DNA from: a virus
Lineage: Duplodnaviria > Heunggongvirae > Uroviricota > Caudoviricetes
Reading direction: 5' to 3' (one strand)
Length of the DNA: 64,000 nucleotides
Virus record (IMG/VR): IMGVR_UViG_2681813318_000003
In this document: positions 3,574 to 38,316 of the stretch, one piece after another
How the letters are laid out: every line of letters starts with the position of its first letter
Numbering within the stretch: position 1 is the stretch's first letter
Position numbers and translations under genes: made by a program
Notes under the pieces: generated by a model
The model's input: the letters and a program-made list of their open reading frames with translations, nothing else
What the model was told of the DNA's origin: nothing
Database searches by the model: none

Positions 3574-4494
3574 TTATTCCTGTGCAGCAGTGACTTCTAC
3601 GGTCGCTGTCGCTTTGTGGCTACCATCTTGGGTAGTAACCTCGATTGTGGCAGTACCAGCCGCAACGCCAGTTACAACACCGGTTTCGCTATCAACCGTT
3701 GCAAACTCGGTATTTTTGGATTCCCAAGTAACGGTTTTATTTGTTGCTCCTGCCGGCTCGACATTTGCGGTCAGCTGAACAGTTTTGTTTGCCTCAACGG
3801 TTGTGCTATTTGGGTCGATTTCGACGCCGGTAACAGCCACAACAGGCGCAGTTACTTCCACCGTTGCAGTTGCCTTTTTGCTGCCATCTTGGGAAACGAT
3901 CTCAATCGTCGCAGTGCCAACTTCTACACCAGTAACGTTCCCGCTCTGGTCTACCGTTGCCTTATCTTCATTTTTTGAAGACCAGGTAACAGCCTTATTC
4001 GTCGCATTTGACGGCTGAACATTCGCTTTCAGACTGACTGATTTCCCTTTCTCAACAGAGGTTGAGTCTGGCGTTACCGTTACGGATTGAACGGCTACCG
4101 GATTTACGGTGACTTCCACTGACGCGGAAAGCTGGGTTTCCTGATCAGTTGCAGTAATTTTTACTTTGCCTGGTGCTACACCAGTTACTAATCCAGTGCC
4201 GTTAACGGCTGCAATTTGATCATTAGCTGACTTCCAAGTGAATGAACTGGCACTCTTACCCATACTAATACCTGCACTAAGTTGAACAGTTTTCCCAACC
4301 AAAACTGACGGTGAAGCCGGGGTTATGTTTACGGATTGGGAGAGGGGAACCGCCTGCAAACAAGCAGATAGCTGACTTTGTTGCCGCTCGGTTAAAGGTT
4401 CATCGGAGATAGAATTGGTAAATCCGGCGCGGCACATATGCCCCGTAAAATCCGAAAATGCCTCTTCCGTAATCTTCATCTTTTGTTCTGGCAT
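3574..4494 (-). CDS. Ig-like domain (three Big_2-type repeats) head decoration protein
   Basis: Three tandem about 80-aa repeats of the type VTVTP..SV..G..V.L.A.V.P..A.NK.VTW.S...ATV; ATG 4494 preceded by AGGAG; directly downstream of the capsid gene. Confidence 0.55.
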   Translation of the reverse strand: MPEQKMKITEEAFSDFTGHMCRAGFTNSISDEPLTERQQSQLSACLQAVPLSQSVNITPASPSVLVGKTVQLSAGISMGKSASSFTWKSANDQIAAVNGTGLVTGVAPGKVKITATDQETQLSASVEVTVNPVAVQSVTVTPDSTSVEKGKSVSLKANVQPSNATNKAVTWSSKNEDKATVDQSGNVTGVEVGTATIEIVSQDGSKKATATVEVTAPVVAVTGVEIDPNSTTVEANKTVQLTANVEPAGATNKTVTWESKNTEFATVDSETGVVTGVAAGTATIEVTTQDGSHKATATVEVTAAQE

Positions 4495-4510
4495 TTCTTG
4501 CTCCTACAAA

Positions 4511-35484: not shown

Positions 35485-35781
35485 GTGTTTTCCTTAATGC
35501 TTAAACAAGTTGTTTTCTAATTGGATTTATTGTGATGTGGCATAAAAGGGGAGCAAGCTAAACGTAAAGGTGCAAACTCTCTATTTCGGTCAACGAAACA
35601 CAAGGGCCATTTGGCCCTTGTCATTAACACGTTGCTTTACGGACTAGCGGATAAGCGAAGTAGATCGCCAGGCCAATGAGGACGCCATCAGAAATGACAG
35701 ACATCATCTTTCCCGTAAAATCCACCAACACCGCCATCACCAGAAGAGCAATGACGGTCACAAGCCGGAATCTCTCAAGCA

Positions 35782-36207
35782 TTAGAGATAAGCATCCAGT
35801 GACAACTGAAGCGCCTGGGCTATCTTTTTCAGCGCCTGCTCTTCTTGTTCTCCAATACCGTCTTGGTCGGCAATATCAAGGCACAGACACAGAACATCGA
35901 CCGCCTCTGGAGTACCCGCAATATCAGACAGCTCACGAATAGCCTGTGCATTAGCAGAACGAGGGGACGCTTCGTAACGAGCACGGATATTGGCGCTCAT
36001 TTGGGCAATTTCACCAGCAAACGGAGAAAACGCAGGCAGAGCTGCAATTGTCTTCTCAAGAATGGCAATTTCTTTTGCGTCACATGTGCCGTCGGCATAG
36101 GAGATCATGTACGCGCCCCACACGGTGGCCTCAACCGCATCACGGTTCTCCATTTTTTTGACTTCAATAACAGCTTTACGAGTTTTCTTTTTGAAGAAAC
36201 CTAACAT
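35782..36207 (-). CDS. TerB-like domain protein (tentative)
   Basis: YADGTCDAKEIAILEKTIAALPA segment resembles the TerB fold signature; class A motif upstream. Confidence 0.35.
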   Translation of the reverse strand: MLGFFKKKTRKAVIEVKKMENRDAVEATVWGAYMISYADGTCDAKEIAILEKTIAALPAFSPFAGEIAQMSANIRARYEASPRSANAQAIRELSDIAGTPEAVDVLCLCLDIADQDGIGEQEEQALKKIAQALQLSLDAYL

Positions 36208-36300
36208 GTGTTTTCCTTTTATTATTTGTCAGAACAAGTTGTTTTCTAGTTTCATAAATTGCTTGCGCAAAGATGGTCAATGCATATGCACTAACAACCG

Positions 36301-36489
36301 TCAGAAATAACCAAGTACCGAACCAACTGGAAAAACAAAAATCCCAACTACACGAGCCAAGGTCATGCCAGCCTGAAACTGGAGATCACCAGAGCAAACA
36401 AGTTTTATAATGTTCGATACCCAACCGGCGGCCATGAGGGCCAGAATTGCCAGCCAAATTTTTCCAAAGTGATTTGAAAACCAGTTCAT
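36301..36489 (-). CDS. Small two-TM membrane protein
   Basis: 62 aa with hydrophobic stretches IWLAILALMAAGWV and VVGIFVFPVGSVLGYF. Confidence 0.4.
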   Translation of the reverse strand: MNWFSNHFGKIWLAILALMAAGWVSNIIKLVCSGDLQFQAGMTLARVVGIFVFPVGSVLGYF

Positions 36490-36737
36490 ACAACCGCCTT
36501 AGTCACAACATGATCCTGAGTAACTGGATGAACTTGAGGTATCGCATCCACCGTCATCCCATCCAGAGTGACAGGACGCTCTACTGGAGTGGTGGTAATT
36601 GTCGTCGACGGAGGTGTGGTGATGGATGAATCCGGCATCAAAAGGCTCTGGCCGGCTGGAACAGCTACCGTCGCCAGTGAAACTATAATGAGAACGTAGG
36701 CCATTGGTTTCAGCCTCTTTCTTTGAAAATTTTCCAT
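36486..36737 (-). CDS. Small signal-anchored Pro/Thr-rich protein
   Basis: 83 aa, TM segment MAYVLIIVSLATVAVPAG, SD AAGGA before ATG 36737; lies in a different frame inside the longer ORF 36499..36993. Confidence 0.4.
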   Translation of the reverse strand: MENFQRKRLKPMAYVLIIVSLATVAVPAGQSLLMPDSSITTPPSTTITTTPVERPVTLDGMTVDAIPQVHPVTQDHVVTKAVV

Positions 36738-36993
36738 TCGAACTGTCCTTGTTGTTTTTCTCCTTCACTAAAGGCCGTGCATTTTTCGCTTGGTGTGAAG
36801 AACCAGAGGTAACAATCGCCCCCACGTTCGCAACAACTGACGCTTGCTTATCTAAACGTTCATTCAGCAACCGAACGGTAGTCTCCAGTTCATCAAGACG
36901 TGACAGAACACGACCGCTAAATAATTCGGCCAAAATTTGACGTAGTGAACGAGGACGTTTAGTTGCAGAAGTGAAATAGGTTTGACGTGCCAT
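36499..36993 (-). CDS. Hypothetical protein (extent uncertain; overlaps the 83-aa gene out of frame)
   Basis: 164-aa ORF with SD GGAG before ATG 36993; C-terminal half is low complexity, so either the real gene ends early or this is an embedded-gene arrangement. Confidence 0.25.
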   Translation of the reverse strand: MARQTYFTSATKRPRSLRQILAELFSGRVLSRLDELETTVRLLNERLDKQASVVANVGAIVTSGSSHQAKNARPLVKEKNNKDSSNGKFSKKEAETNGLRSHYSFTGDGSCSSRPEPFDAGFIHHHTSVDDNYHHSSRASCHSGWDDGGCDTSSSSSYSGSCCD

Positions 36994-37138
36994 GTGGACT
37001 CCATCCAGTGTCAGAAAGAGTTGCGGCTGGCGATTGCCAGCCGCCTTTCTCGTTCCATCCTGGAACTGTGTCTTACCGACACATTGTCATCCTGACGCCG
37101 ATAAGATACATGATTTAATATGATAGGTAAACACTTAC

Positions 37139-37732
37139 TTACCACTTGTTGTAAATAAAACCAATGTCTTTCTTGTGAGGCGTATCGGCTGCGGAAAAAG
37201 CTGCGATCTTCGCGAGTCGATCACATATTTCATTTTCACGATGCCCGGCGTGACCTTTAACCCACTTCCAGCGAACATTATGTCGACTTGCGGCCTCATC
37301 CAGACGTTTCCACAGATCAACATTCTTTACCGGTTTTTTATCAGAAGTCATCCATCCATTACGTTTCCACCATTTCATCCACTGTGTCATGCCGTTTTTC
37401 AGATACTGGCTATCAGAGTACAAAATAACGTTGCATGGATATTTCAAACGCTCCAGCCCGATAAGTGCGCCCATCATCTCCATGCGGTTATTGGTGGTGC
37501 TATGAAAACCATCTGAGAACTCGCGTTCCTCACCACGATACTGGAGAACGATACCGTAACCGCCCGGGCCACCCGGATTTTTAAGGCAAGAGCCATCACT
37601 AAAGATTTTCACGGTTTTGAGCTGGGGATTGAACTCTACGACAGGCGTTGTGGGATTGGTGCGGGGAGAATTTTTGTTTTTGTCTTTTTTGCGAGTTTTT
37701 GCTTGCGATCGGGCTGGTGTCTTCGTCGTCAT
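37139..37732 (-). CDS. Ribonuclease HI with basic N-terminal extension
   Basis: [58 protein letters not shown] align to E. coli RnhA catalytic motifs; start at ATG 37732 with SD CAGGAG. Confidence 0.85.
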
Positions 37733-38316
37733 ATAAACTCCTGAATCAATCGCCGCGCCGATTTTTTTTCCTCGCGCGTGCGCACACGCGTGCGTGTTAA
37801 TAATTATTAAAATAAACAAATTACTTCCCAGAACAGGTTTTTATAAACCTGAACTGAACGAACGAAGTGAGTGAAGTTCACCTCGAACGAAGTGAGAGGT
37901 TGTCTTTTCAGGTAATACTCTCCCAGGGAGGTGAGTATAAAATTCCTCACCAACCTGGTCGTTTCATAACCTGAAAAGCTATGGTCTAAGTCTACTGCCA
38001 GCTTAGACTTGGGAAGTTATGGATGACAGCACCCCAGAACCGAGATCTTCCCACACTTTATGAAGGGGAGTACTGGATTCAACCTCTCGAAACACCCCAG
38101 ACTCGACAATCATAAAGTGACCCTTGTCTCTGCTCACTTTGGTTCCCCCTTCCCCGACACCTATACGGCACCGGTTCTACGCTGGTAGTGAGCTTTTTTA
38201 AACCTGACGCCAGTGACGCTTACCCCCACCCATCAGGTCGAGCCTCCAGTCTACGACTGGAAACTATCATATCTTAGCACTTACAATTCACTTTATGAAT
38301 AGTTTGTACTTATCTA
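37733..38316. other. About 580-bp non-coding region with multiple inverted repeats (candidate structured RNA or cis element)
   Basis: No ORF; alternating GC tract CGCGCGTGCGCACACGCGTGCG, GAACGAAGTGAG direct repeats, CTCCCAGGGAG and TAAGTCTA..TAGACTT palindromes. Confidence 0.3.

Follow-up and report, generated by a model that had tools for sequence, protein, structure and literature searches.

Gene organization of the locus

This study concerns a pair of overlapping genes, here called A and B, in a DNA stretch of 64,000 nucleotides (nt) from the tailed phage record IMGVR_UViG_2681813318_000003; the whole of this stretch is referred to as the window. The 1.8 kb around the locus is 98% identical to Escherichia phage Cyrano (which is the phage-plasmid pLF82 of E. 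coli LF82) and 95-99% identical to more than 160 E. coli plasmids, typed in PLSDB as IncFIB and non-mobilizable. Klebsiella elements give weaker matches to the same region, which by itself matches 418 plasmid records. Because of the matches to Cyrano/pLF82, IncFIB plasmids, and Klebsiella elements, the window is assigned by sequence to the SSU5-type (SSU5/Cyrano-like) phage-plasmids of E. coli.

An earlier interpretation made from the letters alone, the sequence-only reading, described four open reading frames (ORFs) at this locus: a TerB-like gene, a 62-amino-acid (aa) protein with two transmembrane (TM) segments (gene C), and an 83-aa frame (B) inside a 164-aa frame (A). All four ORFs were found at the positions it gave (Table 1). 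They all lie on the minus strand, so the order of expression is the reverse of the one that it implied, namely the pair, then gene C, and then TerB. A fifth gene, which it did not list, encodes a DUF3927/TciB-like protein and follows TerB. The minus-strand order in the window is rnhA, A with the overlapping B, C, TerB/TciA, and TciB/DUF3927.

Gene B is in the +1 frame relative to A, and the two frames overlap out of phase over 239 nt, as had been proposed. B is not fully embedded, as it runs 13 nt past the stop codon of A. Each gene was said to have its own Shine-Dalgarno (SD) sequence, and this holds: GGAG stands 5 nt before the ATG of A, and AAGGA stands 8 nt before the ATG of B. A purine-rich, SD-like tract 8-10 nt before the ATG or GTG of B is conserved together with the start codon in all nine sequence clades described below.

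The annotated records examined show one half of this arrangement. In RefSeq/PGAP (NZ_CP029421.1), as in the Cyrano and SSU5 records annotated by their depositors, A is called and B is not. PHROGs holds A (phrog_10411), B (phrog_15659), and C (phrog_6006) as separate families of unknown function and does not link A with B, so that annotators have evidently differed in the frame that they called. Searches of Pfam, NCBIfam, PADLOC, and PDB sequences gave no match for A or B, and likewise none for C.

Features of the A and B proteins

Protein A has a basic N terminus, a long helix (residues 17-70), a disordered spacer rich in Ser, Gly, and Arg, and a His-rich and Cys/Ser/Asp-rich tail that ends in ...CHSGWDDGGCD...SGSCCD. 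No TM segment was found in it by hydropathy, the best 19-residue Kyte-Doolittle window reaching 0.72. The AlphaFold2 model shows the helix at residues 17-70 with a predicted local distance difference test (pLDDT) score of up to 92, no hydrophobic anchor, and a disordered remainder. A is thus modelled as a soluble protein and is predicted to stay in the cytoplasm.

Relatives of A are few. An exhaustive hidden Markov model (HMM) search of 1.84 billion representative proteins returned 21, all from the same kind of element, and word-based protein searches reached only close relatives. The tail motif consists of a His-rich part, C-x-S-G-W-D/N-x-x-G-x-D, a Ser-rich run, and a terminal C-D. It is recognisable in P0050 and P0056, the most distant of the A relatives in that search. 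The stop codon of A is in the same place in every clade, including the lineages of P0050 and P0056, which lack gene C. Some copies of gene A are mosaics with an SSU5-type N-terminal half and an E. coli-type tail, or the reverse (P0005, P0008, L064, L048), which points to frequent recombination inside the gene.

Protein B begins with a charged N terminus (MENFQRKRLK) and a hydrophobic helix (about residues 12-34); an extended region rich in Pro and Thr comes next, and an LDGMxxDxIP motif is conserved. The hydrophobic segment leads into VPAGQS, of which VPA is invariant. The charged N terminus and the hydrophobic helix are retained across clades despite divergence of the residues, and AlphaFold2 places a helix at residues 3-23 with an extended remainder at low confidence. 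The sequence-only reading had described B as Pro/Thr-rich, anchored by an N-terminal signal, and free of a lipobox Cys; hydropathy analysis finds the single segment, and B lacks a lipobox Cys in all nine clades. The prediction for B is a protein either anchored in the inner membrane or exported across it, with its Pro/Thr-rich part outside the cytoplasm and a signal that may be cleaved after VPA or kept as an anchor.

Conservation of the two reading frames

About 130 related loci were gathered from phage records, IMG/VR, GTDB genomes, metagenomes, and Logan/ENA contigs, and about 125 of these could be read in both frames. They come from E. coli, Salmonella, Klebsiella, Cronobacter, Kluyvera, and metagenomes. 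Nine sequence clades can be distinguished (two of E. coli, SSU5, a mosaic group, Cronobacter, Klebsiella, a further plasmid clade, and two distant metagenomic lineages), between which A shares 29-93% identity. A scan of metagenomes yielded 44 loci and no new deep clade. Both ORFs are intact and have the same geometry in about 114 of the roughly 125 readable loci, with B ending 13 nt after A (10 nt in one clade); the departures are a few frameshifted or rearranged copies.

The double ORF goes beyond chance, because the third forward frame over the overlap carries 3-7 stops in six clade representatives, in which A and B have none, and because frame A would seldom be open by accident. The probability that frame A is free of stops given the B protein, calculated exactly from the B protein sequence and the codon usage of the element, is 0.024-0.134 per clade, with a product of 2e-9 if the seven deep clades are treated as independent. 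On the tree of 50 distinct sequences described below, the observed substitution rates predict about 9.2 changes creating a stop in A (bootstrap range 6.0-13.6), and 0 were observed.

Selection on each frame

Substitutions were counted by parsimony on a neighbour-joining tree of 50 distinct sequences. Upstream of the B start, diversity in A follows the order of a coding frame, being highest at position 3 (0.40), lower at position 1 (0.27), and lowest at position 2 (0.19). Inside the overlap, diversity is ordered by the codons of B (0.26, 0.22, and 0.18 at positions 3, 1, and 2), and the third positions of A are the least variable. Over the B start and TM region, 52 B-synonymous changes were counted against 10 A-synonymous changes at equal opportunity (p=2e-8), and omega_B is 0.44. 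The balance switches in the C-terminal third of the overlap to 19 B-synonymous and 26 A-synonymous changes (Fisher p=1e-5). In this third, omega_A is 0.70 and omega_B is 1.13, and the B-synonymous rate drops from 0.54 to 0.24 per opportunity (p=0.001).

Residues conserved between clades are also written with identical codons more often in B (0.69) than in upstream A (0.56) or gene C (0.41). A block of 14 nt that does not vary among the 50 distinct sequences is read as SGWD in frame A and as LDGM in frame B, and it spans four consecutive B-synonymous sites. Among the most distant relatives, A is constrained at least as much as B. Codon usage is equally atypical in the two frames and gives no sign of which is the older. 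RNA structure was considered as a cause of the synonymous constraint and rejected, as the overlap had no Rfam match and a folding z of -0.05 relative to shuffled sequences.

Comparison of the sequences indicates that A and B are a genuine dual-coding pair, in which both frames are selected and the constraint is partitioned between them. The amino-acid constraint on A is local and modest.

Several points weigh against this reading. Over the whole overlap, omega_A is about 1 (95% confidence interval 0.74-1.49), and amino-acid constraint on A must therefore be confined to its C-terminal part, with the spacer free to vary; within that C-terminal part alone, the contrast between A and B has p=0.07. 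The parsimony counts ignore recombination, which is visibly frequent (P0005, P0008, L064), and the saturation of deep branches. The clades are not strictly independent. In eight of the nine clades, B would be open by chance, given the A tail, with a probability of 0.09-0.71, and in the remaining one (L085) with a probability of 0.015; the openness of B alone is not surprising given the composition of A. Translation of both frames is read from sequence comparison, the AlphaFold2 models of A and B are of low confidence outside one helix each, and the functional part of the explanation is drawn from predicted topology and gene neighbourhood.

Alternative explanations

The dual-coding reading has to be weighed against the possibility that just one of the two frames matters in the overlap. 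If only B and the N-terminal half of A were functional, the last 80 residues of A would be meaningless and their frame stop-free by chance. The whole-overlap omega_A, the lack of constraint on frame A over the TM region of B, and the predicted disorder of the A tail would all fit this, and in a milder form frame A may be kept open merely so that ribosomes arrive at gene C. Chance openness would have to recur in nine clades at 0.02-0.13 each, with none of the roughly nine expected stops arising. It would also leave unexplained the constant position of the A stop, which is kept where gene C is missing, the conservation of CxSGW(D/N)xxG...CD out to P0050 and P0056, and the fall in B-synonymous rate in the C-terminal third. 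We consider a meaningless A tail unlikely. The converse, that A is the only gene and B is a spurious product of its Ser/His/Asp/Gly-rich composition, gains from the high probability of an open B frame given the A tail in five of the nine clades (0.4-0.7; all five belong to the E. coli, SSU5, and Cronobacter groups) and from the three annotations that call A alone. A single gene would show the opposite of the observed pattern of third-position diversity in the overlap, and it would leave unexplained the 52:10 ratio in favour of B-synonymous changes. The SD and start codon kept in nine clades, the hydrophobic helix that persists through sequence turnover, the overlap of the B stop with the C start, and the independent PHROG family of B likewise speak for a real gene, and a spurious B is very hard to defend.

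A different possibility is programmed ribosomal frameshifting, which would make either a fusion of the N-terminal part of A to the C-terminal part of B, A(N)-B(C), or the B anchor followed by the Cys-rich tail of A. It draws on database variants in which a single-base deletion encodes an A(N)-B(C) fusion, and on the shift of constraint along the overlap, from B first to A later. Against it, conservation across clades is lacking for every slippery run; the T4 run of variants P0012 and P0014, for one, is missing from the SSU5, Cronobacter, and Klebsiella clades. B starts from a conserved SD and start codon of its own, and no stimulatory RNA structure is evident (z = -0.05). Frame A is also open over the N-terminal part of B (0.22-0.58 per clade), which a shift from B to A would not need. 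The variants are few (about 3% of loci) and could be assembly errors or pseudogenes. Because the T-runs and A-runs at which they shift are not kept from clade to clade, we set programmed frameshifting aside as the main mechanism and regard it as highly improbable.

The fusion variants are found in P0012, P0014, P0018, P0021, P0023, P0048, and P0051 and in the IMG/VR loci L059 and L075 (~4001-4500), and L092 is a further single-base deletion variant; these are independent records. They join the N-terminal helix of A to the C-terminal part of B, for example at the T4 run (~36628-36631) or at an A5 run. Assembly errors or pseudogenes are the simpler reading, although they could also be tolerated variants or, less probably, a real switch and not sequencing errors.

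Comparison with spanins

The sequence-only reading had likened the pair to the embedded spanin genes Rz/Rz1. The likeness to lambda Rz/Rz1 lies in a small same-strand gene in the +1 frame with its own SD and a Pro-rich, envelope-targeted product, in tailed phages of enterobacteria. The products differ. An i-spanin has an N-terminal TM segment and a periplasmic coiled coil, whereas A has no N-terminal TM segment and is predicted to be cytoplasmic. An o-spanin is an outer-membrane lipoprotein, whereas B has a TM anchor or signal sequence and no lipobox. B also extends 13 nt beyond the A stop, the pair lies outside a lysis cassette, and Rz/Rz1 genes exist separately in this phage family.

A divergent two-component spanin, or another lysis or lysis-timing device, would be favoured by the inner gene in the +1 frame with its long overlap, by the Pro-rich product facing the envelope, and by the small, holin-like gene with two TM segments that comes next. 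The searches point elsewhere. Neither A nor B matches a spanin family in PHROGs or Pfam, and matches to holin and endolysin families are also lacking. Alignment by hhalign to Cyrano Rz and Rz1 gave no similarity (probabilities 0.2% and 0.05%). The complete lysis cassette of Cyrano (holin, endolysin, Rz, and Rz1) lies at 26.7-28.2 kb, about 52 kb from the A/B pair at 79.8-80.3 kb. Holin, endolysin, Rz, and Rz1 are all absent from the window, in line with the earlier remark that no endolysin is nearby, and the pair is set among genes of DNA metabolism. A spanin or lysis function is therefore extremely improbable, and the spanin assignment was rejected as a likeness of architecture only. The 39-aa "Rz1 spanin" annotated in Cyrano (L077 28038-28157) starts with GTG, has no obvious lipobox (VLFCDGAEP...), and follows Rz instead of lying inside it; this annotation may itself be doubtful.

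With these alternatives considered, A and B probably constitute a dual-coding pair of a cytoplasmic protein and a membrane-targeted protein that is distinct from the spanins, as far as comparative sequence analysis can tell.

Neighbouring genes and setting of the locus

The coordinates of the pair, its signals, and its neighbours are given in Table 1.

Table 1. Positions of genes and sequence features at the A/B locus of the window
Feature	Coordinates	Strand	Basis or remark
Intrinsic-terminator-like hairpin and T-rich tract, directly after TciB	35600..35621	-	Downstream module boundary
DUF3927/TciB-like protein, 52 aa, two hydrophobic segments	35624..35782	-	PF13064, hydropathy
TerB-domain protein, 141 aa	35782..36207	-	PF05099, phrog_632, P1 TciA identity
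Gene C, 62 aa, two TM segments, phrog_6006	36301..36489	-	ORF, hydropathy, PHROGs; facultative in relatives
Gene B, 83 aa, phrog_15659, +1 frame relative to A	36486..36737	-	ORF, PHROGs
Gene A, 164 aa, phrog_10411	36499..36993	-	ORF, PHROGs
Putative dual-coding stretch, 239 nt, frames A and B	36499..36737	-	Comparative analysis
Invariant 14 nt, CTCTGGATGGGATG	36555..36568	-	Identical in all 50 distinct sequences, first six clade groups
SD of gene B, AAGGA, 8 nt before ATG	36746..36750	-	Purine-rich SD kept in nine clades
SD of gene A, GGAG, 5 nt before ATG	36999..37002	-	Sequence
G+C-rich hairpin, 9 bp, terminator-like, in the rnhA/A gap	37023..37044	-	Upstream module boundary
rnhA, ribonuclease (RNase) HI	37139-37819	-	ORF listing

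Gene C follows the pair closely. Hydropathy analysis finds its two TM segments, as had been claimed. The B stop overlaps the C start as ATGA in the window and as ATGA or GTGA among the clades. A and C are in the same frame, with the A stop and three codons between them (36487-36501, minus strand), and this is true of every clade that has C. The A stop lies 10 nt upstream of C and inside its SD, which reads TAAGG in the window and TGAGG elsewhere. Read-through of the A stop would yield an A-C fusion with two C-terminal TM segments. In an SSU5-like sub-lineage (L005 3005-3112 and 11 similar loci; L109), C breaks off after about five codons and runs on into unrelated sequence, and A/B is intact. 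In Aeromonas, Vibrio, and Octadecabacter phages, C has remote homologues that occur by themselves and are therefore uninformative about A/B.

The TerB call of the sequence-only reading was borne out by PF05099 (31.5 bits, cut-off 24.4) and phrog_632 (E=5e-63), and the protein has 78.7% identity to P1 TciA. Hydropathy analysis gave no hydrophobic segment in it. The link to tellurite or colicin resistance lies in the name, which comes from homology only, and the papers located in a literature search give no phenotype for phage TciA. TciB matches PF13064 with 47.4 bits (cut-off 25), and its start overlaps the TerB stop as TAATG at 35782.

The neighbours vary where the pair does not. In the 120 loci with enough downstream sequence, A/B is followed by both C and TerB-TciB in 81 and by C alone in 25; it stands without either in 12 and with TerB but without C in 2. 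A/B is thus the constant core of the locus, C and TerB-TciB are facultative, and the grouping with TerB is positional and not obligatory. The TerB-TciB pair is also mobile separately: P1 has it, lambdoid phages have it between Q and the holin gene, and it recurs in Erwinia jumbo phages and numerous other tailed phages. The constancy of A/B beside variable neighbours means that the cluster is a mosaic of small soluble-plus-membrane modules and not one obligate system.

The tciA-tciB-tciC genes of P1 offer the nearest comparison for the TerB part. There, a TciA that is 79% identical to the TerB protein of the window is followed by TciB/DUF3927 with an overlapping stop and start. P1 differs in having no homologues of A, B, or C (searches gave no P1 match), and the window differs in having no tciC. 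The P1 genes upl and plp were considered as counterparts of A/B and rejected, as they are on the opposite strand and unrelated. In P1, tciA, tciB, and tciC were dispensable for plaque formation in a CRISPR interference (CRISPRi) study (PMC10695390).

In annotated relatives, the locus lies within a long co-directional block of DNA-metabolism and accessory genes, in the order Dam methylase, a small gene, RNase HI, the pair, TerB, DUF3927, a 187-aa gene, and a DUF4942 methylase. The five-gene unit A/B-C-TerB-TciB is flanked in the window by two strong G+C-rich hairpins. The upstream hairpin is symmetric and scores as a terminator for both strands, and a simple scan found no promoter between it and gene A. 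The start of rnhA is ambiguous; the longest ORF begins with TTG and encodes 226 aa, and annotated relatives have 197-254 aa. The first 50 residues of this RNase HI are a Lys/Arg/Thr/Pro-rich extension that precedes the RNase H domain. Further upstream, a 44-aa ORF at 38003-38137 (minus strand) corresponds to CYRAN_81 of Cyrano. Transcription of CYRAN_81 in the LF82 lysogen was 12-fold above background, unlike that of the adjoining A, C, and TerB genes (PMC9928086), and its counterpart in the window could be a moron or a non-coding RNA.

Proposed expression and function

We read the locus as a cluster of accessory genes unconnected with lysis, situated among the DNA-metabolism genes of an SSU5-type phage-plasmid. 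Early lytic transcription of the cluster is assumed. In the LF82 lysogen, CYRAN_83-86 do not belong to the genes with transcription well above background (PMC9928086), and the P1 tciA operon sits behind the C1-repressed ban promoters. Both facts make expression during lytic growth the more likely case.

Protein A would start with a basic N terminus and a long coiled-coil-like helix, continue through a disordered spacer under little constraint, and end in the conserved motif rich in His, Cys, Ser, and Asp. Translation of B would start from its own SD and ATG within the spacer of A, in the +1 frame, and give a small anchored or signal-bearing protein. The anchor of B would in this way be written over the unconstrained spacer of A, and the conserved tail of A over the less constrained end of B. 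Both A and B would probably deliver ribosomes to C, and translational coupling of C to the pair is likely because of the ATGA/GTGA overlap and the position of the A stop inside the SD of C.

What the products do can be put forward tentatively. The sequence-only reading had offered membrane stress or exclusion as an alternative to a spanin role, and judged by its context the pair may plausibly act at the membrane in such a way. It is possible, if less than probable, that the A and B products come together at the inner membrane, with or without C and TerB-TciB, and there alter the physiology of the envelope or keep out competitors during lytic growth. A more specific version, which is speculative and unlikely as it stands, would make A and B partners on opposite faces of the inner membrane, with a cytoplasmic coiled-coil A whose tail (HH...CxSGWDxxGxD...CCD) would bind a metal or react with thiol-active compounds, and with a periplasm-facing B anchor that arose by overprinting on the disordered A spacer. 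Together with C and TerB-TciB they would form an undescribed device for envelope stress or superinfection exclusion, in which the overlap would enforce co-inheritance and coupled expression.

Implications for overlapping genes in phage-plasmids

Overprinted viral genes with one ordered and one disordered partner are the subject of a review (PMC8227390). A/B resembles them in its long same-strand overlap, in the placement of a constrained part over a disordered and weakly constrained partner, and in the skewed amino-acid composition of both products. A/B differs in that constraint switches frame within one overlap, and in that the host element is a double-stranded DNA (dsDNA) phage-plasmid of about 100 kb, which has little need to be compact.

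Clinical E. coli, Klebsiella, Salmonella, and Cronobacter commonly carry SSU5-type phage-plasmids. As each annotated record examined calls a single frame, every one of these annotations lacks one conserved protein. The TerB-TciB "tellurite resistance" pair is a separable neighbour, which cautions against transferring function by proximity. The A/B pair is a clean and sequence-rich candidate for long same-strand dual coding in a large dsDNA phage, where compaction is not an obvious driver. Its constraint appears to be handed from one frame to the other within 240 nt, which would make the pair useful for testing methods of overlapping-gene detection and for studying the birth of genes by overprinting.

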